From positions 11,630-75,629 of the forward strand of contig CACOIH010000002.1 of NCBI GenBank assembly GCA_902627245.1: a stretch of 64,000 bases of DNA. The letters run 5' to 3'. Under the pieces are notes generated by a model. It was not told the origin of the DNA, searched no databases, and saw only the letters and a list, made by a program, of their open reading frames with translations. Positions 5,770 to 55,625 of this stretch are shown here, piece after piece. Source of the stretch: an uncultured Alphaproteobacteria bacterium (GTDB taxonomy: Bacteria; Pseudomonadota; Alphaproteobacteria; HIMB59; GCA-002718135). Each line of letters opens with the position of its first letter. Position 1 is the first letter of the stretch. Position numbers and translations under genes: made by a program.

Positions 5770-6895
5770 CTAGACTAGTACCAAATAATAGGTATTTTGC
5801 GGCAGCAATGATTTCAAAAAAAGGGTTAACTTTTGGAACATTTTTTTGAGCAACAAGTGGAATAATAATGTCATTTTTACCATCAATTTTAATAATTAGT
5901 TCACCATATTCTTTTCCTTTTGTAATTGGTGCTGGAATTGGTTTTTTATATTTAATTACAGTTTCCATTAATTGAATTTGATCAAATGATAAAGTTGAAA
6001 TAATATCTTCAGAACTAATTAAATTTACTTTAGATTCTTTTCCTAACCAAATATCTACATCTATAATCTTTTGATTTTTTTTGACTAATTTTTTTTGTGA
6101 AGTTTGATTAAAAGCCCAATTTATTAGATTAGATGATTCATTTAATCTTGAACGTGAGCTATTAGTTCCACTAATAACTACTGTAATTCTTCTTTCATTT
6201 CTTTTAGCAGTAGCAGCTATGCCCCAACCTGATTTTTTAGTAAAACCTGTTTTGAGACCATCAGCTCCCTCAACTTGTTTTAGTAACTTGTTTCTATTAG
6301 GTTGCTTAATATCATTATATGAAAATTCTTCCATTGAAAAGTATGTATAAAGATTTGGGAAGTCCTTAATTATGGCATTAGATAAAATAGCCAAATCATA
6401 AACTGTTGAATAATGATTTTCTTCTGGCCAACCTGAAGAATTAACAAAATTAGAATTGCTCATACCAAGACGCTTTGCATAAACATTCATTAATTTAGCA
6501 AAATCGTTTTCAGTACCACCTAAACATTCTGAAAGTGCAATTGATGCATCATTTCCTGATTGAACAATTATACCTTTTAAAAGATCATCAACTGATACTG
6601 TATCATCTATTTCAAGGAAAGTTCTTGATCCACCCTTTTTATAAGCTTTTGCTGAAACACGGCATTCATTTTTTATAGAAAAATCTGTATTTTTTATTCG
6701 ATCGAAAGCAACATACACAGTCATGATTTTTGTCATTGATGCTGGTATAACTCTAATGTTTGAATTTTTTTCAAAGAGAACTTCATTGGTATCATAATCA
6801 ATAACAATTGCATGTTCAGCCTTTGTATCAATAGCTTGAAGCTTGGAAGTTACAAGAAAAATTGTAAAAAATAAAAAAAATTTTGACATAAACAT
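5762..6895 (-). CDS. D-alanyl-D-alanine carboxypeptidase (low-MW PBP5/6 class)
   Basis: Signal peptide plus the SxxK (SMTK), SxN (QSGND) and KTG (LKTGFT) motifs. Confidence 0.85.
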   Translation of the reverse strand: MFMSKFFLFFTIFLVTSKLQAIDTKAEHAIVIDYDTNEVLFEKNSNIRVIPASMTKIMTVYVAFDRIKNTDFSIKNECRVSAKAYKKGGSRTFLEIDDTVSVDDLLKGIIVQSGNDASIALSECLGGTENDFAKLMNVYAKRLGMSNSNFVNSSGWPEENHYSTVYDLAILSNAIIKDFPNLYTYFSMEEFSYNDIKQPNRNKLLKQVEGADGLKTGFTKKSGWGIAATAKRNERRITVVISGTNSSRSRLNESSNLINWAFNQTSQKKLVKKNQKIIDVDIWLGKESKVNLISSEDIISTLSFDQIQLMETVIKYKKPIPAPITKGKEYGELIIKIDGKNDIIIPLVAQKNVPKVNPFFEIIAAAKYLLFGTSLDE

Positions 6896-6924
6896 TAATA
6901 GTTCTTAATTATGACCTTTATTTG

Positions 6925-7863
6925 TTATTCAATAAATATTTCAGTTTCCTTATAACCTTTTGTAATAAAGTATGAAACTAAATTATTTGCTTCAGTATTT
7001 TCAATGGGACCAATAACTAAGTCAAATTTTGAATTATTTTTTTCAGAAGTATATTTTAAATTTTTATCATATTCATTAATTAATATTTGAATTTTTTCAT
7101 AATTTTCTATTCCAGATATTTTTAAGAATAATTTGAAATCTGATATTTTTTCAGATTTTAGTTCAATTGGTTCTTGCTTTATTTTATTAGTATTTTCTTC
7201 AGTTGTAATATCGTCGTCAATCTCAACAATTGATACTATATCTGTAGGAGCAGATGAAACAGTTTTTTCAAAATCTTCATCATTCATTGAATTTATAACA
7301 CTCTTCCATTGTTTACTTGCATCAGATAATATTTCGACTTTAACAGTAGCAATTTTAGATTTATAAAAGCCAAGAAGTTGCGCAACTTTTCTTGAAACTT
7401 GAATAATAGTTGCGTTTTCATAATGTCTATCAATAATTTTAACATTAATTGACAATCCATTATCCATATTAGTAATTTTCACCATACTTGGAAGTGGTAA
7501 GGTCTTATGTCTACCAAGTAATTCTGTTACCTTATTAATATCATTGTTTATTGTTTTTACATTATGTAATTCCTTGCCATAATAGGAAGATAAACCAATT
7601 TGAGAATAACTATAATTTTCCTTAGGTGTATAACTTACTCCTTCAATATAATATTGTTCTCCAACATAATAAAAAATATTGTCATTATTATTTAAATTAT
7701 CGTCATTATTGATAGTAATAGATTTTTTTTCTTCTTTATTTTCAATAACTTTTTCAATTTTTGATGCGCCTGTTTCTACCACTGTTGTAACTTTTTGAAT
7801 ATTTAATTCATTACAAGAATATAAAAATAAAAAAAAAGTAAAACTAGTTAGAAATTTTATCAC
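6925..7863 (-). CDS. rlpA: RlpA-family septal lytic transglycosylase lipoprotein with C-terminal SPOR-like domain
   Basis: Lipobox LYSC. DPBB-like core (HKTLPLPSMVKITNMDNGLSINVKIIDR) and a SPOR-like C-terminus. Confidence 0.75.
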   Translation of the reverse strand: MIKFLTSFTFFLFLYSCNELNIQKVTTVVETGASKIEKVIENKEEKKSITINNDDNLNNNDNIFYYVGEQYYIEGVSYTPKENYSYSQIGLSSYYGKELHNVKTINNDINKVTELLGRHKTLPLPSMVKITNMDNGLSINVKIIDRHYENATIIQVSRKVAQLLGFYKSKIATVKVEILSDASKQWKSVINSMNDEDFEKTVSSAPTDIVSIVEIDDDITTEENTNKIKQEPIELKSEKISDFKLFLKISGIENYEKIQILINEYDKNLKYTSEKNNSKFDLVIGPIENTEANNLVSYFITKGYKETEIFIE

Positions 7864-8896
7864 TGAGAAGTCCTACTGAAACAGCATAATATGATGAGCA
7901 ATTATAATAAAGAATATTTTTGTAATTTGGATAAACAATAAACATTCTTCCATCTATCCCATCTGGCATTATTAATCTAGCTTCTAGATCATTTCTAGCT
8001 GGTAAAGGATCCCCATTAATTTTAGTAAATCCTAATTTAGACCATTCTGATAAAGATTTAGGGATTGATCTTCTTTTAACAGCGCCACAACCTCTTGGAT
8101 TGATTTGTTTTATTGAATTGATAAATGATGAAGATATATTTTCAGGAGGAAGAACTTCCCTACCCCAAGTGCTATCTATAGACCATGGATTTTTGTCCAA
8201 TGAAGTTAAATAGTTTGCAGCACTTGCAAAGGCATCAGCATAACTATTCCATATATCAATGCCATTGCCATCCCAATCATATGCTGTTTCTATAAAAGTT
8301 GTAGGTATCATTTGTGTCATACCTACAGCTCCCCCCCAACTACCTTTTAATTCTCCACTTGGCACTAAATTATTATCTAAAATTTTAAGTGCCGCAAAAA
8401 GTTGCTTTTTATAGAAGTCGCTTCTCCTTCTATCAAAAGCAAGAGTCGTAATTGCAATGATTGAATTTATTTTACCCTGATTTCTTCCATAATAACTCTC
8501 CATACCCAACACAGCAACAATAAATCTAGGTTGTATTTTAAAATAATCACTTATTTCGTTTAGTAAATCTTCATGTTTTTTTAAGAATTTTTTTCCAACA
8601 AATATTTTATCTTTTGTAATAGTATAAAATAAATATTCGTCTAATGTCATTGTAGATGCTGGCTGACATCTATCTCGCATAATAATCTTACTTTGTGGTT
8701 GAACATTATTGAGATGAGTTGAGATAGTATTTTGACTTATACCTATTTCTAAGGCTTCTTTTTTTATATTTGATAGCCAACTATTCCATTCATCATCAGT
8801 TGGCATTTTGGGTTTTTCACAATCTGTTGCAAAAGCATTTAGAGATATAAATATAAAGCAAAGGAGAAACCTAATAATCATTATATAAAATACCAA
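7844..8896 (-). CDS. Lytic murein transglycosylase (MltB-like)
   Basis: Signal peptide, catalytic-Glu segment LGMESYYG, and GAVGMTQMIPTTF. Confidence 0.8.
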   Translation of the reverse strand: MVFYIMIIRFLLCFIFISLNAFATDCEKPKMPTDDEWNSWLSNIKKEALEIGISQNTISTHLNNVQPQSKIIMRDRCQPASTMTLDEYLFYTITKDKIFVGKKFLKKHEDLLNEISDYFKIQPRFIVAVLGMESYYGRNQGKINSIIAITTLAFDRRRSDFYKKQLFAALKILDNNLVPSGELKGSWGGAVGMTQMIPTTFIETAYDWDGNGIDIWNSYADAFASAANYLTSLDKNPWSIDSTWGREVLPPENISSSFINSIKQINPRGCGAVKRRSIPKSLSEWSKLGFTKINGDPLPARNDLEARLIMPDGIDGRMFIVYPNYKNILYYNCSSYYAVSVGLLSDKISN

Positions 8897-8934
8897 AACT
8901 ATCGTTAATTAGGAAATGATATATACTTAATATT

Positions 8935-8961
8935 TTGACATTTTTAAGATGAAACTATAGT
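8935..8961 (+). promoter_or_regulatory. Candidate sigma-70-type promoter in front of the orphan tRNA-Ser 5' fragment
   Basis: Perfect TTGACA at 8935-8940 and TATAGT at 8956-8961 (5/6 match), but the spacer is only 15 nt. The fragment starts 13 nt after the -10. AT-rich DNA gives many false promoter matches. Confidence 0.3.
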
Positions 8962-8971
8962 AAGCCATTAA

Positions 8972-9016
8972 ACGGAGAGATGGCTGAGCGGTTGAAAGCA
9001 CTGGTCTTGAAAACCG
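8972..9016 (+). repeat. Orphan 5' part of tRNA-Ser(UGA): att-like direct repeat of 11365-11409
   Basis: 45 nt identical to the intact gene plus its 2 leading bases, apart from one C>T at 9002 in the anticodon stem. Homology stops one base before the anticodon stem would close. Confidence 0.9.
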
Positions 9017-9088
9017 TTTATAAGCTAAGTATTCTAACAAAAAAAATACCTTAGAGCGAGTGTAGAGTGAAAATTTAGATAAAGTTGG

Positions 9089-9862
9089 TTACCCTACTCT
9101 ATAATGAACATCTTCCATGATCTCACCTTTTGGTTTTCTAATCTTAGATTTATTATTTCTTAACTCAAGAATACAATTATCAATTATACTTTTAGAGTTA
9201 TTCAAGAACCATGTATTTCTTGCAACAGGTATTAATCTAGAATTTTCAGGAAAAAAGAATGTTCGAATATCATATCCCCCTTCCAAAATTGTTTTATAAA
9301 ACTTACCTCTAGATTTAGTAAAATCGTGGTAACTCAGTAAATCAAAAGTAATTTCCTTACTATCTTTTGGACGAAGAAGATTAGTAATAAGCTGGTTATT
9401 TTTAATAACCTCAAAACCATATAATTTTTGTTCAAAATGCTCAAAAACCTCTTCTTCCCGGTTGTTTAACGATAATATTAAACTTTTTAAGATAACATGA
9501 TGTTGAAATTCATTTTTGTAAATAGATGTAAAAAACTCATATTTAAGATGATGACCAGAAGGTTCAGCAATAATTAATTGAGCTCCACAAATACTAATAT
9601 CATCATCATCGTCAAAGTCCACTAAAGGAGTAAAAACATAGTATCTTTCAGTCCACTCCTCCAAAGTAGTTACTTCTTCAAATTCTTTTTTAATATTAAG
9701 CTGGTTAATAAGTTGTTCTTTTGGTGATAAAACCTTGAAAGTATTCCGATAAACATCACTTTCATATGGTTCTATAGAAAAAGAAGTTGTGGCACCAAGA
9801 AGGAGTATAATAATGAAAAATAAGGTAATTATGAAAGTTACAATTCTTATTATTAGTGCCAC
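9089..9862 (-). CDS. Hypothetical membrane-anchored protein (islet cargo)
   Basis: 257-aa ORF with one N-terminal TM helix (IVTFIITLFFIIILLLG). I recognise no family. Confidence 0.5.
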   Translation of the reverse strand: MALIIRIVTFIITLFFIIILLLGATTSFSIEPYESDVYRNTFKVLSPKEQLINQLNIKKEFEEVTTLEEWTERYYVFTPLVDFDDDDDISICGAQLIIAEPSGHHLKYEFFTSIYKNEFQHHVILKSLILSLNNREEEVFEHFEQKLYGFEVIKNNQLITNLLRPKDSKEITFDLLSYHDFTKSRGKFYKTILEGGYDIRTFFFPENSRLIPVARNTWFLNNSKSIIDNCILELRNNKSKIRKPKGEIMEDVHYRVG

Positions 9863-9918
9863 ACTTTATTTAATATTATTTAATTTGGTAAATAATTTGT
9901 TAAGAATATGTTTAATTT

Positions 9919-45060: not shown

Positions 45061-45957
45061 TTAATTCAAATTCTTATCTATTAAAACTTGTTTTACAGTT
45101 TCACCCATTACAGAGGGATTTTTAGAAATTGTAACTCCACATTCTTTTAGAAGTTCAACTTTTTCTACAGCACTTTCTCCATAAGCTGAAACAATAGCAC
45201 CTGCATGTCCCATTACTCTTCCCTTAGGTGCAGTTAAACCAGCAATATAAGCTATAACAGGCTTATTCATATTCTCTTTGGCAAATTGACCTGCGGCTAC
45301 CTCTTGAGGACCTCCTATTTCTCCAATCATTAAAACTGCAATTGTCTCATCATCAGTTTCAAATTTTTCTATAATATCTCTAAAAGAACTTCCATTGATA
45401 GGATCTCCCCCAATACCTACACTTGTTGAGACACCAATATCCAAATCCTTTAGTTGTTGGGCTGCTTCATAACCTAACGTTCCTGATCTGCTCACAATTC
45501 CTATCTTACCCTCTTTGTAAATATGACCAGGCATTATGCCTAACATAGATTTACCAGGACTAATTATGCCCGCACAATTAGGTCCTACTAAACCCATTTT
45601 TTTATCTTTTGAATATCTTCTCATATATCTTTTTATTTTGACCATGTCATGAGATGGAATACCATCTGTAATAGCTACACAAGTTTTAATACCTGCATCA
45701 GCAGCTTCCATTGCTGAGTCTGCTGCAAAAGCAGGTGGTACAAAAAGTATAGATGTAGAAGCACCTGTTTGATCAACTGCTTCTTTAACTGTATTAAATA
45801 CTGGAAGATTTAAGTGTGTCATTCCACCTTTTCCTGGAGTAACACCTCCAACTATATTAGAACCATATTTAATCATTTCTTCCGCATGAAATGTACCTAT
45901 CTTACCAGTGAAACCCTGTACTAGTATTTTCGTATTTTTATGAATTATTATCGACAT
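45061..45957 (-). CDS. mtkB: Malate--CoA ligase (malate thiokinase) alpha-type subunit
   Basis: 298 aa with the CoA-ligase alpha fold and phosphohistidine loop MGHAGAIV. NCAGIISPGKSMLGIMPGHIY and ITDGIPSHDM..KRYMRRY match MtkB as I recall it, not SucD (NCPGVITPGECKIGI). It sits in an operon with mcl. Confidence 0.75.
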   Translation of the reverse strand: MSIIIHKNTKILVQGFTGKIGTFHAEEMIKYGSNIVGGVTPGKGGMTHLNLPVFNTVKEAVDQTGASTSILFVPPAFAADSAMEAADAGIKTCVAITDGIPSHDMVKIKRYMRRYSKDKKMGLVGPNCAGIISPGKSMLGIMPGHIYKEGKIGIVSRSGTLGYEAAQQLKDLDIGVSTSVGIGGDPINGSSFRDIIEKFETDDETIAVLMIGEIGGPQEVAAGQFAKENMNKPVIAYIAGLTAPKGRVMGHAGAIVSAYGESAVEKVELLKECGVTISKNPSVMGETVKQVLIDKNLN

Positions 45958-47120
45958 TAATTACTTAAAGCCTTTACTGCCTTATTTGCTGCATCTTCCA
46001 ATGTGCTAGCTTCAATGTAATTTATCTTACTTTTTTTTAAAATTTCATTTCCTTTTTCAACATTTGTTCCAGCTAGCCTAATTACTAATGGTAAAGAAAT
46101 TTCTATTTTATTTAATGCTTGTACTATTCCTTCAGCAACCCAATCACATCTATTTATACCTGCAAAAATATTTATTAATATTACTTTAACTTTTTTATCC
46201 ATAGAAATAAGCTTAAACGCTTTGACTATTTTTTCTGGAGTAGCCCCTCCTCCAACATCTAAGAAATTTGCTGGTTCACCTCCAGCAAGTTTTATCATAT
46301 CCATAGAAGCCATCGCTAATCCAGCACCATTAATGATATTACCAATATTTCCATCAAGACTTACATAATTCATACCTCTGTCAGAGGCATAAACTTCATT
46401 AGAATTTTCCTGAGTTTTATCTCTAAGTTCTGAAATTTCATCCCTTCTAAACATTGCGTTATTATCAAAACTCATTTTACAATCTAAAGCAAAAATTTCA
46501 TCTTGTTGTGATACAACTAAAGGATTAACTTCAACCATCGTTGCATCAAGTTCACTAAATGCTTTATAACAACCAATAATAGTATTTGCAGCTCTTGAAA
46601 TTAGTTTAGGTTCAATTCCTAAACCAAATGCAATCTCTCTAGCTTGAAATTGCTGAATGCCAACTGCAACTTCAATTTTACTTCTAATAATTGTTTCAGG
46701 TTTTTCTTTTGATATTTCTTCAACACTCATGCCTCCCTCTGTAGAAGCAACAACCATTATACTTTCTGATGATCTATCGAATACCAATCCTAAATATAAT
46801 TCATGCTTAATATCGGTAGCTTCCTCAATATATATTCTATTTATAATTTTACCCTCTGGCCCTGTCTGATTAGTAACAAGTTTTTTTCCTAATAATTTAT
46901 CTGTAGCATCTGCTACTTCTAAGGGTGAGTTACAAACTATTATACCACCTGCTTTACCTCTTGCTCCTGAATGTACTTGTGCCTTAACAACCCATTTAGA
47001 ACCACCAATTTCTCTAGCTTTGTTTTCTGCATTCTCAGGACTGTATACTATTCCACCTGTAGGTATTTTAACTCCAAAATCAGATAAGATTTTTTTAGCT
47101 TGATACTCGTGAATATCCAT
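45957..47120 (-). CDS. mtkA: Malate--CoA ligase (malate thiokinase) beta-type subunit
   Basis: 387 aa with ATP-grasp N-terminus MDIHEYQAK. GIQQFQAREIAF and FAGINRCDWVAEG resemble MtkA rather than SucC. Confidence 0.75.
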   Translation of the reverse strand: MDIHEYQAKKILSDFGVKIPTGGIVYSPENAENKAREIGGSKWVVKAQVHSGARGKAGGIIVCNSPLEVADATDKLLGKKLVTNQTGPEGKIINRIYIEEATDIKHELYLGLVFDRSSESIMVVASTEGGMSVEEISKEKPETIIRSKIEVAVGIQQFQAREIAFGLGIEPKLISRAANTIIGCYKAFSELDATMVEVNPLVVSQQDEIFALDCKMSFDNNAMFRRDEISELRDKTQENSNEVYASDRGMNYVSLDGNIGNIINGAGLAMASMDMIKLAGGEPANFLDVGGGATPEKIVKAFKLISMDKKVKVILINIFAGINRCDWVAEGIVQALNKIEISLPLVIRLAGTNVEKGNEILKKSKINYIEASTLEDAANKAVKALSN

Positions 47121-48058
47121 TATTTACTTTCAATTAGCTTGTTTATATTTACGATATTCTCAGCCATCCTTGCAGAAGCAGCGTCAATCATTCTACCATC
47201 AAGTTGTGCAGCACCTTTGCCTTCTGCTGCAGCTTTATCTAATTCCTCTAAAATACGTTTAGCTTTATTTACTTCATCATTTGGAGGAGAAAAAACTTTA
47301 TTTGCTAAATCAATTTGTGAAGGATGAATTGCCCACTTTCCCTCAAAACCAATTGCCGCAGCTCTTTTAGCAGCATCCAGATATCCCTCTTTATCATTAA
47401 AGTCTCCAAATGGTCCATCTATTGCTCTTAGTCCATATGATCTACACGTCATAACAAGTGTAGATAAACCATGATGCCATTGATCTCCAGGATAATCTGG
47501 GTTTAGTCCACCTATTACAACTGTTCTAGCTCTCATACTTGCAGCATAATCAGCAACACCAAAATGTAGTGCTTCCAGTCTTGAACTTGATTTAGCAATA
47601 GATTGAATATTAGACATTCCAAGTGCCGTTTCAATAAGGCATTCCAATCCTATAGTATTTTGGAATTTTTTATTTTGCTCTATTTGATTGAGCATGCAGT
47701 CTACCATATATACGTCTGAAGCGGAGCCAACCTTTGGTATTAACAAAGTATCTACTTTATCTCCTACCTCTTCAATAATTTCAATTACATCACGATACAT
47801 GTAATGAGTATCTAATCCATTTATTCTAATTGAAATAGTTTTGCCATTATCCTTCCAATTAAGTTCTTTTATAGCAGTTATAACATTTTTTCTTGCGTCT
47901 ATTTTATCGTTTGGAGAAACAGCATCCTCTAAATCTAAAAAAATATAATCTGCATTTGAGTTTAATGCTTTTTCAAACATTTTTGGAGAAGATCCTGGAA
48001 CCGCTAATTCACTCCTTTGAAGTCTAGACTTGGCAGGTTTGTAATATAGATGACTCAT
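47120..48058 (-). CDS. mcl: L-malyl-CoA / beta-methylmalyl-CoA lyase (HpcH/HpaI-CitE family)
   Basis: 312 aa. RSELAVPGS, IFLDLEDAV, RINGLDTHYMYRDV, LIETALGM, FGVADYAAS and EGKWAIHPSQIDLAN align along the whole length with methylotroph MclA as I recall it. Confidence 0.85.
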   Translation of the reverse strand: MSHLYYKPAKSRLQRSELAVPGSSPKMFEKALNSNADYIFLDLEDAVSPNDKIDARKNVITAIKELNWKDNGKTISIRINGLDTHYMYRDVIEIIEEVGDKVDTLLIPKVGSASDVYMVDCMLNQIEQNKKFQNTIGLECLIETALGMSNIQSIAKSSSRLEALHFGVADYAASMRARTVVIGGLNPDYPGDQWHHGLSTLVMTCRSYGLRAIDGPFGDFNDKEGYLDAAKRAAAIGFEGKWAIHPSQIDLANKVFSPPNDEVNKAKRILEELDKAAAEGKGAAQLDGRMIDAASARMAENIVNINKLIESK

Positions 48059-49268: not shown

Positions 49269-49868
49269 ATGCATATTTACGATTTCATTCAGGGGCTAAT
49301 AATCGGATTTACCCTAATAATTGCTATTGGTCCTCAAAATTTATTTGTAATTAATCAGGGATTAAAGAAAACATTTGTACTTACTGTAGTTTTGTTTTGT
49401 AGCCTTTCTGACAGTATTTTAATAATAATTGGTATAAATATATCAAGTGTAATTGTAGGTATAAATCCAAATACAATTATTATTTTAAAAATTTTAGGAG
49501 GTATTTGGTTAGTATTTTATGGTTTAAATAAAATTAGATATGTTAATAAAATTAGAAATTTACAAAATATTGAAACAATTGAAAGTGATTTTAAGAAAAT
49601 CCTAATAACCTTATTTCTAATTACTTATGCTAATCCACATGTATATTTAGATACAATTATATTAATAGGTTCAATTTCTACAAATTTTAATAGTCAATTA
49701 TTCTTTGGAATGGGTGCAGTGATGGCAAGCTTTATATTTTTCTTTGCTTTAGGTTATTTGTCTAAACTTCTATCTAAATATATATATTCAAATAAAACCT
49801 GGTTTTGGATAGATCTAATTATAGGGTTTTTAATGATTTTATATGGAATTAAATTTATATTTTTTTAA
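49269..49868 (+). CDS. LysE/ArgO-family amino-acid exporter
   Basis: 199 aa with six TM helices and an N-terminal GPQNLFVINQG motif. Confidence 0.8.
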   Translation: MHIYDFIQGLIIGFTLIIAIGPQNLFVINQGLKKTFVLTVVLFCSLSDSILIIIGINISSVIVGINPNTIIILKILGGIWLVFYGLNKIRYVNKIRNLQNIETIESDFKKILITLFLITYANPHVYLDTIILIGSISTNFNSQLFFGMGAVMASFIFFFALGYLSKLLSKYIYSNKTWFWIDLIIGFLMILYGIKFIFF

Positions 49869-52800
49869 AAAAACTTTCTAAATTTTCACAAACATTATCA
49901 ACATTTTGCCTATTAAATATTAAAGGTGGCTTTATTTTTATAACATTATCATGAGGACCATCGGTACTTAATAAGATTCCATTATTTCTCATAAAATTTA
50001 TAATTTTTTTTGCTAATTGCTTATTTGGTTTTAGTTTATTTGAGTTTTTTATAATATCAATTCCTATAAATAATCCTCTACCTCTCACTTCGCTTATATA
50101 TTTTTTGTTTTTACGTTTGATTCTTTCCAGCTTATTTAAAAAATACTTACCCACACTTAATGCATTCTCCTGAAGTTTTTTATTTTCAATAACTTCCAAT
50201 ACTGATTTTCCTACAGCACAAGATACTGGATTACCTCCAAATGAATTAAAATACTCCATGCCATTATTAAATGATGCGGCAATTTTTTCTGTTGTTACTA
50301 CTGCACCAATAGGATGACCATTGCCCATAGGTTTACCTAATGTAACAATATCTGGTATAACTTGATGCTCCTGGAATGACCAAAAATTATTACCAACTCT
50401 TCCAAATCCAGTCTGTACTTCATCTACAATACATAAAGCTTTATTTTTTCTAACTTCTTTGAAAACTTCCTTTAAATAATTTTTTGGAAGTATGACCTGG
50501 CCTCCACATCCTAAAATACTCTCAGTAAATAAACATGATAATTTATTAATTTTAGATTGATGATTTATTTTTTCTTTTGCTTCATTAATATATTTCTTAA
50601 TCCAATCTTTATTTTTATACTGCCATTTGCCCCTCAAAGGATCAGGCATTTCTAAAACATGTACATATTTCTTTTTACCTAATCCACCGTTTCCATCAAA
50701 TTTGTAAGGACTAAGGTCTATTAAAGAATTTGTATGACCGTGATATGCATTATCAATTACAAATACATCTTTTGCTTTTGTGTATGTCTGAGCAATTCTA
50801 TACGCTAAATCATTAGCTTCAGATCCCGTACAAACAAAAAAAATTTTATTTAATTTTTTAGGAAATTTACTAAGCAGTTTGTCGCTATATTGATTAATCA
50901 TATCATATAAATATCTTGTATTTGTATTTAACTTTAAATTTTGATTAATCATGGCATTATGTACATGAGAGTTTGAATGGCCAACATGTGAGATATTATT
51001 CACACAATCTAAATATCGTCTTCCATAACGATCAAAAAAATATTGATCTTTTGCTTCAAGCATATGTAATGGACGATCATAAGAAATTGATAAATTGTGG
51101 GAAATATTTGTTTTTCTTTTATTTAAAATAGTTTTGAAATCTTGTTTATTACTAAAAAAAGAATTTGGTATTTTAAGAATTAAATTTGGATCCGGTGATA
51201 TTTTAGACCATACATCAATTAAGTATTCTTCCCCAACACCTGGAAAGTTTGTTTTTTCACCCAATAAATCTAAGATAATTTGAAAATGTAAATGGGGAAG
51301 CCAATTACCATTTTCTTTAGTTTGACCAATTTTCCCAATCCAATCACCTTTTTTAATTTTTTTACCTATTTTTAATTTTTTTAATATTTTTTTTGATAGA
51401 TGCCCATAAAGCGTATAAAATTTATTGTTTTGAAACTCATGTTCTAGAACAAGTGTTGGGCCATAATCATATTTAAAGGCATTATCTTTGAGGATCTTTA
51501 CCTTGCCATCAATAGGTGCAAATAAATCTGTACCATGTTTAATGAATATATCTATTCCTAAGTGAATATTACGTCTTTTAATGTTATTAAGTTCTGAAAT
51601 AAAATTAATACCTTTGTATACTTTTCTTTTTTCTTTATATAGTCCTATTCCAATATTTGAATTATCATTTTTGTATATTCTATTAACTCTAATATTGATT
51701 TCACTATTAGTTGGATTTCCTTTAAGTAAGTGCGATGTTGAATTTAATTTTAAAATAGATTTGTTTACATCAAGCAAATTAAAACTAAAAATATTCGCAA
51801 AATCATAATTTTTTAAAAAAGTAATAATTTTATTATAATTTTTAATAGTTGAATAACCACAAATATTTCTAATAATATAAATTAAAAACTGAGTAGGTAT
51901 TTTATCTAATTTTTCTAGTAGAGCCCATGCATCATTTTCACTAATACTTAAATATTTATTTTTTGGATATTTAATTCTTTGTTTCTTTGCCATTACAACT
52001 GTAATCATTAATCTAGATTTGCTTAAAGAGATCAAGGAATTAATTTCATCTTCGTTAATTGAAAATATTTTATGATATTCAGAAATTATATTTTGTAATG
52101 TTGAAAAAATATTATTATTATTCATTAATGCGTAAGACAAACAAATAGCTAAATCATTTATTGTAGGTGCATAAATAGAATCACCGTAATCTAAAAGACC
52201 ATTTATCTTATTATTTTTAACAACAAGATTATAATTATTAGGGTCTGAATGAGTAATCGAATATCTTAATTTTTTTAGATTATTTTTAACTAATTTTTCG
52301 TATTCTAAAAAACAATTAACTAAAATTAATTTTTTATTGCCAGTAAAATTATTTATTTCTTTATAAACCCAATCTATATTAGAGGGATCCCAAATAAATT
52401 TTCTATAAGCATCTTTATCAAAAAAAGATTTCAATTGAACTGAAGTCATACCAATTAAGCTGCCTAATGATTTTTCAATATTAGGATTAGTTTTTATATC
52501 TCCGTACATTCTTCCATCTATGTAAGATAATATTCTAACAAAACACTCTCTATTTTTTGTGTCTAAATATTTCACTATTTTTTTATGAAGAATTTTTGGG
52601 ATATATTCTTTAAGTTCTTTAGTAGTACTTAAATGTTTAATTAATCTATCTTGATATTGAAGAATATTTAAATTTTCATAAGGATTTGAGATTTTAAGTA
52701 CATATTTTTTTTTATCTTGTATGGATATTGTAAAATTTATGTCTCTTTCACTATTTAATTTGTTAAGGGTAAAGGATTTATTTCGTAAGAATGAATAATT

Positions 52801-52905
52801 AGTTTTTAGCCATTTAATTAAATGCTTTTTTTCAATTATAGGTGGCTCAACATCAAAAACTGACATAAAAGGTGTATAATTCATAATGACAAAATCTAAA
52901 AACAT
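49855..52905 (-). CDS. Tri-domain fusion: APH-type kinase + M23 peptidase domain + class-III aminotransferase (phospho-lyase-like)
   Basis: 1016 aa. Kinase catalytic loop [10 protein letters not shown] and LDYGDS at about aa 217-245. M23 HxxxD (HLGIDIF, aa 448) and HxH (HLHFQI, aa 538-540). C-terminal [23 protein letters not shown] and PLP-Lys [11 protein letters not shown]. Confidence 0.85.
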
Positions 52906-53773
52906 TTTTGTTTGTATTGGGGCAATTCATCACGATTATTTATTAAATTTAAAAAATAACATTATAAATAAACGCACAAATCCAATAACTCACAATTACA
53001 GAATTGGAGGGGTTGCCTACAATGTTGCAGAGTTAATCTCGATTTTTGATAAAATTCAATTTTATAGTCTTTCAATTAATAAAGAATTACAAAACAAAAT
53101 TTCAAAAAATATATCTGTAAAAAAAATTAATAACGAAAAGTCAGAAAGATACTATGTAGCATTATCTGATAAAAATAATAAATTTATATTAGGTCTCGCA
53201 AATACAGATGTGTATGAAGATACAAAATTGTATAAAATTCCAGATATAGTTAATAAATATATTATATTTGATCTAAATTTTTCAGAGAATTTTATAAAAA
53301 ATGCAATTAATAAACTTTCAAATAGAAACAAAATTGTCGTATGCGCAACATCAGTTTACAAAATTATAAAAATAAAAAAAATAATTAATAAAATTGATAT
53401 AATTTTTCTTAATAAAGCTGAATTAATAAAATTAACAAATATTGATAATATAGAACAAGGAGTAAAAAAGATTTTAAAGATTAATAATAAAATAAAAATT
53501 GTAGCTACAAACTCTAAAAATAATGTAATTTATGGAGATAATAAATCAATTATAAAAATAAAGCCCCCTAAAATTAAAGTTAAAAATGAAAATGGTGCAG
53601 GTGATGCTTTAGCTGGTATGATGTTATATTTGTTATCTAAAGGATGTAATAAAGAGCAAATTTTAAAATATTCAGTAGCATGTGGATCTTATTATGCTAA
53701 TGGTAATAGATTAAGTTCAAAGAAAGATTTATTAAAAATAAAGAATATTTCTAGACGTGTAAAATTAAAGTAA
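52886..53773 (+). CDS. psuK: PfkB-family sugar/nucleoside kinase, probable pseudouridine kinase
   Basis: 295 aa with the PfkB C-terminal NGAGDALAG motif. It lies 1 nt upstream of psuG. Confidence 0.65.
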   Translation: MTKSKNIFVCIGAIHHDYLLNLKNNIINKRTNPITHNYRIGGVAYNVAELISIFDKIQFYSLSINKELQNKISKNISVKKINNEKSERYYVALSDKNNKFILGLANTDVYEDTKLYKIPDIVNKYIIFDLNFSENFIKNAINKLSNRNKIVVCATSVYKIIKIKKIINKIDIIFLNKAELIKLTNIDNIEQGVKKILKINNKIKIVATNSKNNVIYGDNKSIIKIKPPKIKVKNENGAGDALAGMMLYLLSKGCNKEQILKYSVACGSYYANGNRLSSKKDLLKIKNISRRVKLK

Positions 53774-53774
53774 A

Positions 53775-54684
53775 ATGGATAATTTTTTTAATATTAGTAA
53801 TGATGTTCAAAAGGCAATAGATTTAAACAAACCTATAGTTGCTTTAGAAAGTACTCTAATTAGTCATGGGCTACCTTATCCAGATAATATTAAAGTAGCA
53901 AAAGAATCAATAAATGCTGTAGAAGATAATGGTTCAGTTGCTGCAACAATAGGAATAATAAACGGTAAAGTTAAAATTGGATTAAATGAAGAGGACATAA
54001 ACATTCTTGCAAAAGATAATAATGTTCAAAAAGTATCAAATCATAATATAAAATTATCAATATTTAAAAAAGAAAATGCCGCAACAACTGTAGCAAGCAC
54101 GATATCTATAGCATCAATTTTTGGAATAAAATTTTTTGCTACAGGTGGAATTGGAGGTGTGCACTTAAATGCAGAAAATACATATGACGTATCAGCAGAT
54201 TTATATTCTTTATCCGAACATCCTAATTATGTAATTTGTAGTGGAGCTAAATCAATCTTAGACTTAAATAAAACTTATGAACTTTTAGAAACATTAGGAA
54301 TAACTAGAATTGGTTATAAAACTGATTATATGCCAGGTTTTTGGTATTCTGAAACTAAACATCAAGTTGATAAAAATTTTGAAGAAGTAACTGATATAAG
54401 TAATTTTTTGAAATTAAATTCAAAACTGAAACATAATAAATCAATACTAATTTTTAATAAAGTTCCTGAAATAAATGCTATTAGTAAAGAGCAAATTGAT
54501 AAATGGATAAGTAGTGCTTTAGTAAAAGCTGAAAAAAAATAAAATTTCTGGTAAGGCACTTACACCATTTCTAATAAAAGAAATAAATAATTTTTCTAAC
54601 AATAAAACTTTAAAAGCTAATGTTTCTTTAATTATAAATAATGCTGATTTAGCTGGAAAAATTGCTAAAAATTTTTATTCTTAA
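53775..54684 (+). pseudogene. psuG: Pseudouridine-5'-phosphate glycosidase, reading frame broken at an A8 tract (genuine frameshift or homopolymer sequencing error)
   Basis: The first 255 aa (ALESTLISHGLPYP...) stop at 54540-54542. The +1 frame continues KISGKALTPFLIKEINNFSNNKTLKANVSLIINNADLAGKIAKNFYS* to 54684, the conserved PsuG C-terminus. Reading the tract at 54532-54539 as A7 restores a single ORF of about 302 aa. Confidence 0.85.
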
Positions 54685-55625
54685 GGTAGAAAAGACAACT
54701 TATTTTTTAGTAATTCAAAAAATTTTTTGTCATCAGCATGATTCATAACCATGCAGTTTGGTTTTCTATTTGTGACACCAAGCCAATCAACAATGGTTTC
54801 TCCACGTGTCAATTTAGAGTTTTCTTCAACAATTACATTAACTAACTTACCTTTAAAAATGTTTGGATTTAATAAATAGGCAATTACACATGGGTCGTGA
54901 AGAGGAGTATCCTCAGTTTCATATAATTTTTTGTGAAAAATTGTATAAAATTCCATTAGTTCTCCAAAAAATTTAGAACTTTTATTATTATTTTCATTCA
55001 TAGAATTAATGATTATTGTATTTACATTAACCTGATGAGTAACATCTAAACCCATCATTGTTAGTGGAATACCTGAGTCTAGTACAATATTTGCAGCATG
55101 AGGATCTACATAAATATTAAATTCTGCAGAAGGAGTTGTATTTCCTAAACACATAGCTGCCCCACCCATAAAAACTATTTCTTTTATTTTGTTCTTGATC
55201 GATGGATCTTTTTGAAGACTTAAAGCAATATTGGTCAGGGGACCTGTAGGACACAAGTATATTTGATCAGTAGATGAATTACAAGTTTCTATTATAAAAT
55301 CTATCGCATTCTGCTCTTGTACATTATAATTAGGGTTAACTATTATAGGATCTCCTTTTTTATCTAACCCCGTTTTTCCATGAACATATTCAGCTGTAAA
55401 TAAATCATAATGGATTGGTTTATTCGCACCTGAATAAATTTTTAAATCAGTTCTTTCAATTAAAGTGCAAACTTTTAATGCATTATTTACTGTATTGTTT
55501 AATCCTGAATTTCCACCTACACAAGTTATGCCAAGAATATCAATTTCAGAAGAAGCTGCTGCTAACATTATAGCAACAGCATCATCATGACCTGGATCAC
55601 AATCTAAAATTATTTTTTTAGTCAT
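54681..55625 (-). CDS. Nucleoside hydrolase (inosine/uridine-preferring family)
   Basis: 314 aa with the N-terminal DCDPGHDDAVAI (DxDxxxDD) signature. Confidence 0.9.
   Translation of the reverse strand: MTKKIILDCDPGHDDAVAIMLAAASSEIDILGITCVGGNSGLNNTVNNALKVCTLIERTDLKIYSGANKPIHYDLFTAEYVHGKTGLDKKGDPIIVNPNYNVQEQNAIDFIIETCNSSTDQIYLCPTGPLTNIALSLQKDPSIKNKIKEIVFMGGAAMCLGNTTPSAEFNIYVDPHAANIVLDSGIPLTMMGLDVTHQVNVNTIIINSMNENNNKSSKFFGELMEFYTIFHKKLYETEDTPLHDPCVIAYLLNPNIFKGKLVNVIVEENSKLTRGETIVDWLGVTNRKPNCMVMNHADDKKFFELLKNKLSFLP

Follow-up and report, generated by a model that had tools for sequence, protein, structure and literature searches.

The gene considered here is carried on the minus strand of the window, the stretch of 64,000 nucleotides that was analysed as a whole, and consists of a single uninterrupted open reading frame of 1016 codons with an ATG start (Table 1); the strand had not been given in the preliminary description of this DNA. 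Searches with Pfam profiles placed three domains in the encoded polypeptide, namely APH (PF01636) at residues 63–260 (36.9 bits, cut-off 23.2), Peptidase_M23 at residues 447–544 (64.2 bits, cut-off 28.7, E 1e-17), and Aminotran_3 (PF00202) at residues 613–1011 (255.5 bits, cut-off 30.5, E 1e-75), all of them above the Pfam cut-offs and with E-values, from 4e-9 to 1e-75, that are far beyond chance. The preliminary description had read the gene as one polypeptide of kinase, M23 peptidase, and class-III aminotransferase with the key motifs of all three domains intact, and this was borne out in full by the ORF listing, the profiles, and the alignments. Translation probably starts at M8 or M14 and not at M1, with a likely real protein length of 1009 or 1003 amino acids: the homologues close to the window protein are 1009 or 1003–1004 amino acids long as judged by their lengths and alignment starts, residues 1–14 were modelled with a pLDDT below 50, and a start at M1 would create a 20-nt overlap with the divergent upstream ORF at 52886..53773. 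A scan for promoters and terminators at the gene returned fewer matches than shuffled sequence.

Table 1. Positions, in window coordinates, of the fused gene and of the domains and codons discussed in the text.
Feature	Position	Strand	Basis
Whole ORF, three-domain protein	49855..52905	minus	ORF listing, Pfam, NCBIfam; 1016 codons plus stop
Alternative start codons M8 (52884-52882) and M14 (52866-52864)	52864..52884	minus	starts used by most homologues
APH-fold kinase domain (aa 14-351)	51853..52866	minus	Pfam APH, conserved residues, PDB profile matches
M23 module (aa 352-582)	51160..51852	minus	alignments, short homologues, module model
Peptidase_M23 core (aa 447-544)	51274..51567	minus	Pfam, Pgp3 alignment, conservation, Foldseek
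ETNPPL-type PLP domain (aa 591-1016, class-III aminotransferase fold)	49858..51135	minus	Pfam, PDB search, tree, motifs
Codon of PLP-binding K858	50332..50334	minus	aligned to GKPMGNGHP of 6tor and 5g4i

The N-terminal domain displays all the hallmarks of the APH fold, with the β3 lysine (K71), the HxDxxxxN loop (H219-x-D221-x-x-x-x-N226), and the DxGD metal loop (D239-Y-G-D242) recognisable both in the sequence and in the alignments. D221, N226, and D239 were invariant in all 121 homologues and K71, H219, and D242 were kept in 111–120 of them, the set K71, D221, N226, D239, and D242 being conserved in 118–121. A profile was needed to reach known structures, as the domain used as a single-sequence query found no significant match in the PDB; the profile gave its best matches with 6ef6 and with 2ppq, a type-II homoserine kinase (E 3e-15, about 290 positions), followed more weakly by amicoumacin kinase (1e-12) and APH(2'') (5e-8). 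By this ranking, its nearest relatives of known structure are small-molecule hydroxyl kinases and not protein or aminoglycoside kinases. [quoted passage not shown] Both 6ef6 and 2ppq share the Brenner and DxGD motifs with the window protein but are encoded by separate genes without an M23 module, and the resemblance holds at the family level only. By its sequence, the domain is assigned to the small-molecule amino-alcohol/homoserine kinase branch of the APH fold.

At the other end of the protein, the PLP-binding lysine K858 is situated in an 11-residue motif that matches the same motif of human ETNPPL, and it was present in 120 of the 121 homologues. The best PDB matches of the window protein were 6tor, human ETNPPL/AGXT2L1 (E 1e-118, 400 bits), and the bacterial phospholyase 5g4i (E 3e-87, 297 bits), whereas the next match after these phospho-lyases was a racemase at E 1e-44 and all others scored 156 bits or less. 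Identity of the PLP domain amounted to 47% with ETNPPL over 414 aligned residues and 39% with 5g4i, against 27.5% with a class-III aminotransferase encoded in the same window. In a neighbour-joining tree without bootstrap, with ordinary aminotransferases as the outgroup, ETNPPL nested among the fused forms and 5g4i/5g4j branched at the base of the fused clade. Two motifs, NN[VI]xHVGH (also in a longer form in which 13 residues follow NN[VI]x) and NV[IL]K[IM][KR]PP, occur in the window protein, 6tor (in the latter case as NVLKIKPP), and 5g4i and have no counterpart in the two outgroup sequences, both ordinary class-III aminotransferases; the genome's own ordinary transaminase lacks such lyase-type motifs. 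K990, the lysine of the second motif, was kept in 138 of 139 fused homologues. That these motifs mark a phospho-lyase subfamily is suggested by the present comparison and is not a published rule. The C-terminal domain was proposed at the outset to be AGXT2L-like, with its phylogenetic placement as the check; the PDB ranking, the identity to ETNPPL, the motifs, and the unbootstrapped tree all support an AGXT2L/ETNPPL-like domain, and an ordinary transaminase was rejected on the tree, the PDB ranking, the identity values, and the lyase-type motifs. Differences in architecture from the known lyases are nonetheless considerable, in that animal ETNPPL and its paralogue PHYKPL/AGXT2L2 are single-domain proteins of about 450–500 amino acids, while the window lyase forms the C-terminal third of 1016 residues, and the partner kinase of animal PHYKPL, HYKK, is encoded by a separate gene, whereas the bacterial form is fused. 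The phospholyase 5g4i/5g4j, likewise stand-alone (446 aa), was deposited under the name "phospholyase / putative aminotransferase class III protein".

Because of the likeness to ETNPPL, the lyase-type motifs, the tree, and the kinase profile matches, the two outer domains are read as an amino-alcohol kinase joined to a phospho-lyase, and the conversion of an amino alcohol into an aldehyde, ammonium, and phosphate by this fusion is a well-supported prediction. The N-terminal kinase would use ATP to phosphorylate the hydroxyl beside the amine, making a poor leaving group a good one. The PLP domain, as a member of the ETNPPL/PHYKPL branch, would then form an external aldimine with the free amine and eliminate phosphate, yielding an aldehyde or ketone together with ammonium and inorganic phosphate, and the fusion would hold the phospho-intermediate local throughout. 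Both steps are modelled on the homologous enzymes. The mycobacterial pathway likewise couples an aminopropanol kinase with a phospho-lyase of the class-III fold. The likeliest substrates would be ethanolamine and 1-amino-2-propanol, with 5-hydroxylysine as a further possibility. With moderate confidence, the gene is thus taken to encode a self-contained cytoplasmic kinase and phospho-lyase for the catabolism of a primary amino alcohol, to which the M23 domain would be an accessory. No conserved partner gene was detected beside the fusion, either by all-against-all clustering of ORFs from 82 loci or by a Pfam tally over 128 genes on its flanks, and this would fit a self-contained enzyme. On this reading, many bacteria of soil and sea would have a route for stripping nitrogen from amino alcohols such as ethanolamine, a phospholipid head group, with one ATP spent. 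The scavenging of phosphorus, which had been suggested alongside that of nitrogen, does not follow, as one cycle of kinase and lyase gives zero net phosphorus.

The presence of an intact M23 domain had been described as unexplained by this chemistry, and the puzzle proves to be a real one. The M23 part constitutes a discrete module of about 230 amino acids, which comprises an N-terminal helical part, the family motif G421-x-Y-x-E-x-R-x-x-Y430, the M23 core, and an SPDPN tail. The core carries H448-LGI-D452, H502 in YGHL, and H538-L-H540, of which H448, D452, and H540 are predicted zinc ligands, H502 and H538 predicted catalytic residues, and H489 a predicted second-shell residue. All of these motifs align to Pgp3 (6jmx) and were conserved in 103–116 of the 121 homologues, with the full set of six His/Asp zinc and catalytic residues kept in 100. 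The core is better conserved than the kinase, with a mean pairwise identity of 0.40 versus 0.32. A model of the module reached a pLDDT of 88.3, and its Foldseek search against the PDB gave 28 matches at E<=1e-3, all of the M23/LytM fold (LytM rmsd 2.5 Å over 102 columns). Residues 352–582 are precisely absent in 18 shorter homologues of 741–801 amino acids, and several M23 ligands have been lost together in about ten of the 121; on comparison, the assignment of these degenerate members to the PRK06149 family was rejected. A tblastn search with the short, module-less form against plasmids recovered long forms only.

To our knowledge, every characterised member of M23 is either an exported hydrolase of peptidoglycan or elastin or a dead regulator. 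The module shares with LytM, lysostaphin, Csd3/Pgp3, and ShyA the PF01551 domain, the HxxxD, YGH, and PHLHFQ motifs, and the fold, but differs from the known enzymes in having no signal peptide, in being wedged between two cytoplasmic enzyme domains, and in possessing an extra N-terminal part with the G-x-Y-x-E-x-R-x-x-Y motif. No N-terminal or internal hydrophobic segment was found in the protein, the maximum Kyte-Doolittle hydropathy over 19 residues being 1.27. Judged by this and by its position between two cytoplasmic domains, the module would not be one of the exported enzymes that act on cell-wall or extracellular peptide cross-links.

The module groups with stand-alone homologues of about 225 amino acids, which form a large set: 5666 of them were found at E<=1e-10, Vibrio tritonius WP_342609936.1 being one such stand-alone protein. 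These keep every motif, with catalytic residues at least 90% conserved, and 117 of the 120 inspected lack an N-terminal hydrophobic stretch. Their surroundings were sampled in ten contigs and in a metagenome scan of 80 loci. Translational coupling to an MFS transporter gene occurs for some of the stand-alone genes but is limited to Vibrionaceae and a few others, and some lie near M20 peptidase genes; no dominant neighbour family emerged among the 99 flanking genes of the metagenome scan, and guilt by association therefore gives no substrate. The module may be pictured as an autonomous unit recruited from stand-alone, apparently cytoplasmic M23 proteins. The existence, alone as well as within a metabolic enzyme, of a strongly conserved M23 branch whose active site is intact and which carries no signal for export suggests an unexplored intracellular function.

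What the module does within the fusion may be viewed in two ways. Since the active site has degenerated in some lineages and the whole module has been cleanly removed in others, it is regarded as accessory and, on the alignments, not essential to the kinase-lyase chemistry. The loss of ligands in about ten of the 121 homologues and of the entire module in about 18 makes the M23 chemistry dispensable and would agree just as well with a role as scaffold or regulator. One possible, though not the expected, account is that the kinase-lyase chemistry stands as proposed and the M23 domain is no enzyme but a zinc-stabilised structural, oligomerisation, or regulatory spacer, which would hold the kinase, a monomer, in position on the PLP dimer or gate the access of the phospho-intermediate. 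The clean deletion of the module, after which the remaining protein family persists, and the degenerate ligand sets point in this direction, as do the lack of conserved peptide-related genes among the 128 genes flanking the fusion and the appearance of DipM (7qrl), a LytM-domain structure, among the Foldseek matches; catalytically dead LytM domains such as those of EnvC and NlpD are well established as protein-protein regulators. Known scaffold LytM domains, however, lose their zinc ligands yet keep the fold, whereas 100 of the 121 homologues retain the three ligands and two catalytic histidines across proteins that are only about 35% identical, and the same module, with its catalytic residues similarly preserved, recurs by the thousand as a protein of its own, with neither a kinase nor a lyase for it to hold in place.

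The module is probably zinc-loaded and catalytically competent, to judge from the residues retained. A low-confidence best guess would have it hydrolyse a small substrate at an amide or peptide bond, exposing the free amine or amino alcohol on which the kinase and lyase depend. In its fullest form, which is tentative and rather doubtful, this proposal would make the M23 domain an active cytoplasmic zinc amidase or peptidase on small molecules and the protein a three-step pathway on one chain, in which hydrolytic release of the amino alcohol from an amide or peptide conjugate, or unmasking of its amine, would precede ATP-dependent phosphorylation and the PLP-dependent elimination of phosphate and ammonia. 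If an active M23 domain were confirmed, the stand-alone proteins of about 225 amino acids would represent a previously unrecognised metabolic, non-cell-wall branch of M23. The earlier idea of a collagen- or peptidoglycan-derived fragment as substrate received no backing from a conserved gene neighbourhood in the 82 loci and 128 flanking genes.

A quite different proposition, in which the C-terminal domain catalyses another PLP reaction, such as transamination, racemisation, or a PbfA-like ammonia-lyase reaction, and the kinase serves an unrelated step, is very unlikely. Public annotations do name homologues DavT, GabT, or dialkylglycine decarboxylase, and NCBIfam gives weak matches to PbfA (189 bits, cut-off 525) and to a large number of transaminase models, but every such model scores far under its cut-off. 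The two phospho-lyases defined by experiment are also far closer to the domain than any transaminase is, the domain bears their distinctive motifs, including the lysine at the NVxKxKPP position, and a phospho-lyase would need exactly such a conserved fusion to a hydroxyl-directed small-molecule kinase. The public labels GabT, DavT, and "aminotransferase class III" almost certainly denote the wrong type of reaction.

The fusion itself is not new to the databases, being catalogued without a functional name as the "hypothetical protein" family PRK06148 (NCBIfam NF004799, 1015 positions). Residues 46–1015 of the window protein align across all three domains to model positions 29–1010 at 1025.3 bits, under the curated trusted cut-off of 1128, and by sequence it is placed as a divergent member from an AT-rich marine branch with 31–42% identity to most other members. 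A second NCBIfam model, NF004800 (PRK06149), counts with NF004799 among the nearest known counterparts. Full-text searches of the literature turned up no characterisation of a fused protein from bacteria and no mention of its M23 domain. Bacterial "bi- or tri-functional" fusions were reportedly the clue by which Veiga-da-Cunha et al., in 2012, identified the animal enzymes. What the present analysis adds is that the M23 part is a discrete module, better conserved in its core than the kinase, exactly missing from forms of about 750 amino acids, and also found alone.

More than 100 representative clusters (50% identity level) of about 1000 amino acids align to the window protein in one stretch, from residue 45 or so to 1013, at 31–42% identity. 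That separate genes were wrongly united here in assembly or annotation, the outcome by which the fusion was to be refuted, has a negligible probability. The only point in its favour is a Ciceribacter thiooxidans locus where APH and M23-aminotransferase lie on two ORFs in different frames, but these overlap by about 420 nt, as is typical of a fused gene broken by a frameshift and not of two genes. The window ORF is unbroken, and hundreds of independent full-length homologues exist, some in finished replicons. A truly split gene in Ciceribacter was likewise rejected in favour of the frameshift. The end-to-end architecture is present in at least ten bacterial phyla and in Asgard archaea, its carriers including soil rhizobia, Acidobacteriota, Chloroflexota, Bacteroidota, and Desulfobacterota. 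It is no special feature of a nitrogen- and phosphorus-scavenging oligotroph, and an oligotroph-specific trait was rejected on this spread over many phyla. The commonest family among the flanking genes, SDR, accounted for five of the 128, which was judged too rare for inference; one of the five adjoins the Sinorhizobium (S.) meliloti gene. The same three domains occur in many isolates and on the finished S. meliloti replicon pSymB, where the homologue spans 1203430-1206354 of NC_003078 and offers a genetically tractable system for the M23 question.

A single unbroken reading frame was recovered for the fusion from the ORF listing and translation of the window, and Pfam places the kinase, M23 and aminotransferase domains along it in the order already given in the preliminary description, with every motif named there found intact in the translation. 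That description is thereby confirmed; the strand, which it left unstated, is minus. Translation probably begins at M8 or M14, not at M1: close homologues measure 1009 or ~1003-1004 aa, with alignments beginning at query residue 14; residues 1-14 have a pLDDT below 50 in the structural model; and a start at M1 entails a 20-nt overlap with the divergent PfkB-family ORF (window 52886-52905, 5' ends as called). With M8 as the start (52884), the two start codons lie 1 nt apart, leaving no room for an intergenic promoter. The AlphaFold model of the full-length fusion reached a pLDDT of 86 and a pTM of 0.77, with the M23 module above 90.

Features of the fusion, its neighbours and the stand-alone M23 genes (window positions unless residues or a locus are named)
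Feature	Position	Strand	Details
Fusion ORF	49855..52905	minus	ATG, 1016 codons
APH	residues 63-260		Pfam, E 4e-9
Peptidase_M23	residues 447-544		Pfam, E 1e-17
Aminotran_3	residues 613-1011		Pfam, E 1e-75
Kinase motifs	K71; H219-S-D221-P-N-N-Y-N226; D239-Y-G-D242		sequence
M23 motifs	H448-LGI-D452; YGH502; PH538-L-H540-FQ		sequence
PLP lysine	K858 in [11 protein letters not shown]		sequence
Ordinary class-III aminotransferase paralogue, 444 aa	35165-36499	minus	served as outgroup
CitE/malyl-CoA-lyase-like, malate-CoA ligase beta, succinate/malate-CoA ligase alpha	45061-48058	minus	adjacent genes
LysE-type exporter	49269..49868	plus	best NCBIfam models L-lysine exporter and ArgO, both below cut-off
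PfkB-family kinase ORF	52886..53773	plus	divergent from fusion
PfkB-family kinase, Indigoidine_A (pseudouridine-5'-phosphate glycosidase-like), RihA-like nucleoside hydrolase	52886-55625
Stand-alone M23 genes overlapping the end of the upstream MFS gene	L083 7899-8570; L086 7001-7666; L087 7001-7681; L094 6001-6693		comparison loci; L083 is Vibrio tritonius pMA35

When all PDB sequences were searched with the PLP domain, the best matches were human ethanolamine-phosphate phospho-lyase (ETNPPL; 6tor, E 1e-118) and the bacterial phospholyase 5g4i (E 3e-87), followed by a racemase (E 1e-44) and only then by transaminases. Its identity is 47% to ETNPPL, 39% to 5g4i and 27.5% to the window's ordinary class-III aminotransferase. 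In a neighbour-joining tree of 144 PLP domains, rooted on two ordinary aminotransferases and built without bootstrap support, 5g4i is basal and human ETNPPL branches among the fused proteins. ETNPPL and 5g4i both carry NN[VI]x[13 protein letters not shown] and NV[IL]K[IM][KR]PP, as do the query and 138 of 139 fused homologues; the ordinary aminotransferases deviate at all three of the motifs that the lyases share. Clustering with ordinary transaminases, the outcome that the preliminary description named as refuting, was thus not seen by search, tree or motif, and we infer that the PLP domain is a phospho-lyase. In the same tree, which carries no support values, ETNPPL groups with two short fusions lacking the M23 module, P0336 (788 aa) and P0326 (801 aa), hinting either at a fused ancestor of the animal single-domain enzymes or at a eukaryotic source of these two proteins.

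The kinase domain returned no significant match in a single-sequence PDB search. When a profile was built from 20 diverse kinase domains, its best PDB matches were 6ef6 and the type-II homoserine kinase 2ppq (E 3e-15), with amicoumacin kinase next and aminoglycoside kinases only at ~1e-7. Across 121 homologues, D221, N226 and D239 do not vary. We take 6ef6 to be the (S)-1-amino-2-propanol kinase of the Mycobacterium smegmatis RMM microcompartment, and the pathway partner of the mycobacterial aminopropanol kinase is likewise a phospho-lyase of the class-III fold.

By analogy, the core of the fusion most likely works as a kinase plus phospho-lyase, in which an amino alcohol would be phosphorylated at its hydroxyl group and the phosphate then eliminated by the PLP domain to yield aldehyde, ammonium and phosphate. 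Similar chemistry has precedents in the animal HYKK/PHYKPL pair and ETNPPL, in a route through amino-alcohol kinase and phospho-lyase known from Erwinia since the 1970s, and in the mycobacterial aminoacetone pathway. This part of the earlier interpretation is supported. Its framing as a trait of a phosphorus-scavenging oligotroph is not supported; phosphate consumed in the cycle is given back, and nitrogen and carbon would be gained but not phosphorus. Nor is the core kinase-lyase idea new, as the abstract of a 2012 JBC paper reportedly speaks of bacterial "bi- or tri-functional proteins". That paper is reference 76 of a 2025 review, among its gene-fusion references. The interest of the fusion lies instead in a conserved, signal-less branch of M23 domains, and it is on this module that the present analysis adds something.

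The M23 module is a discrete unit: in 18 representative homologues of 708-801 aa, query residues ~352-582 are the only part missing. These short forms are dispersed among the long forms in the neighbour-joining tree, which weakly suggests repeated loss of the module. Mean pairwise identity is 0.40 for the M23 core, 0.32 for the kinase and 0.52 for the PLP domain, and all six of H448, D452, H489, H502, H538 and H540 are kept in 100 of 121 homologues, a pattern pointing to strong constraint. The module modelled in isolation (pLDDT 88) is predicted to adopt the M23 fold; its top 28 Foldseek matches in the PDB are all M23/LytM-fold domains, LytM itself superposing at an rmsd of 2.5 A over 102 columns. 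The ~90 residues preceding the core, for which no match was found, bear an invariant G-x-Y-x-E-x-R-x-x-Y motif. The module has the sequence and fold of the M23 family but not the character of an exported cell-wall hydrolase. Homology does not account for its presence, and the preliminary description had already remarked that the kinase-lyase chemistry does not either.

Relatives of the module also occur alone. With the S. meliloti module as query, tblastn hit a 223-aa Vibrio tritonius protein (39% identity, covering the N-terminal part and all motifs). Searching with that protein in turn retrieved 5666 proteins at E<=1e-10, of which the top 120 are all 203-248 aa long with PF01551 alone; 117 of the 120 lack a hydrophobic N-terminus, and each catalytic residue is at least 90% conserved. 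PGAP labels them 'peptidoglycan DD-metalloendopeptidase'. An MFS transporter gene precedes the M23 gene, with translational coupling between the two, in Vibrio, Photobacterium, Dongshaea and one more gammaproteobacterial contig. Three loci have an M20 peptidase close by, and one has an APH kinase two genes upstream. A metagenome scan yielded 59 stand-alone, nine fused (1012-1051 aa) and a few intermediate M23 ORFs, with no dominant family among 99 neighbours of the stand-alone genes, whose genomic context is not uniform.

Since ligands and catalytic histidines are kept both in the fusion and alone, in proteins without an export signal, we favour an active intracellular zinc hydrolase with a small amide or peptide as its substrate; within the fusion it might unmask an amine or amino alcohol. 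The decay of several of the six residues together in about ten of the 121 homologues (~8%), along with the clean deletion in others, marks the module as accessory. The same two observations would suit a scaffold or regulator, a role that we consider less likely, given that known non-catalytic LytM domains have lost the ligands, unlike the present module, which retains them together with the catalytic histidines.

No conserved operon partner of the fusion was found among 128 flanking genes at 82 loci, the sole recurrent family being SDR (5/128); the enzyme therefore seems self-contained, and its context yields no substrate. On S. meliloti pSymB, a short-chain dehydrogenase gene on the same strand (locus L001, 8184-8897) ends 14 nt before the homologue, recalling the aminopropanol dehydrogenase of the mycobacterial aminoacetone pathway, although the arrangement is too rare for a rule. 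In the window, the fusion is surrounded by a LysE-type exporter, pseudouridine kinase/glycosidase genes and a malyl-CoA lyase/malate-CoA ligase cluster, a synteny common only to the nearest SAGs. The exporter, whose pairing with the fusion is likewise kept only among the closest SAG relatives, overlaps it by 14 nt at convergent 3' ends (49855-49868). The genes adjoining on the other side likely form a pseudouridine/pyrimidine nucleoside salvage cluster. The malate-CoA ligase beta subunit scores 626 bits against the PRK14046 cut-off of 604, and its cluster resembles a module for glyoxylate/C2 assimilation; the genome is very AT-rich.

The implied novelty of the fusion was not borne out, the family being already catalogued as PRK06148, a 1015-position NCBIfam model named only "hypothetical protein". 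The fusion aligns to it end to end at 1025 bits, slightly below the curated cut-off of 1128 bits, and is a divergent member of this unnamed family. At least 120 clusters of 992-1016 aa with the identical three Pfam domains (60-93% identity) emerged from a word-indexed protein search; they come from marine alphaproteobacterial MAGs and SAGs and are called "DavT", wrongly, wherever named. Searching the 50%-identity representatives exhaustively gave more than 100 further ~1000-aa clusters, which match residues ~45-1013 without a break, with 31-42% identity. The tblastn matches comprise full-length copies on 85 plasmids or chromids, one of which is S. meliloti 1021 pSymB, whose 1008-aa homologue has the same three domains; a search seeded with that ORF extended the family to Rhizobiaceae, Roseibium, Pseudomonas benzenivorans and Ilumatobacteraceae. 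Hence an assembly artefact is ruled out by the many clusters, the end-to-end PRK06148 match and the plasmid and chromid copies.

The architecture is not rare: a scan of species-representative genomes gave at least 592 family loci, in Alpha- and Gammaproteobacteria, Acidobacteriota, Gemmatimonadota, Chloroflexota, Desulfobacterota, Bacteroidota, Nitrospirales, Actinomycetota and Phycisphaerales, and also in the Asgard archaea Thorarchaeota and Promethearchaeota. Three homologues in Asgard MAGs (L029 8001-10958, L030 152-3094 and L038 8001-10958) are full-length, three-domain proteins of 38-40% identity, which could reflect horizontal transfer or binning contamination. On a Ciceribacter thiooxidans plasmid (L084), an APH-kinase ORF (6784-8271) and an M23-aminotransferase ORF (7851-9890) overlap by ~420 nt in different frames, probably owing to a frameshift, pseudogene or sequencing error rather than a natural split.
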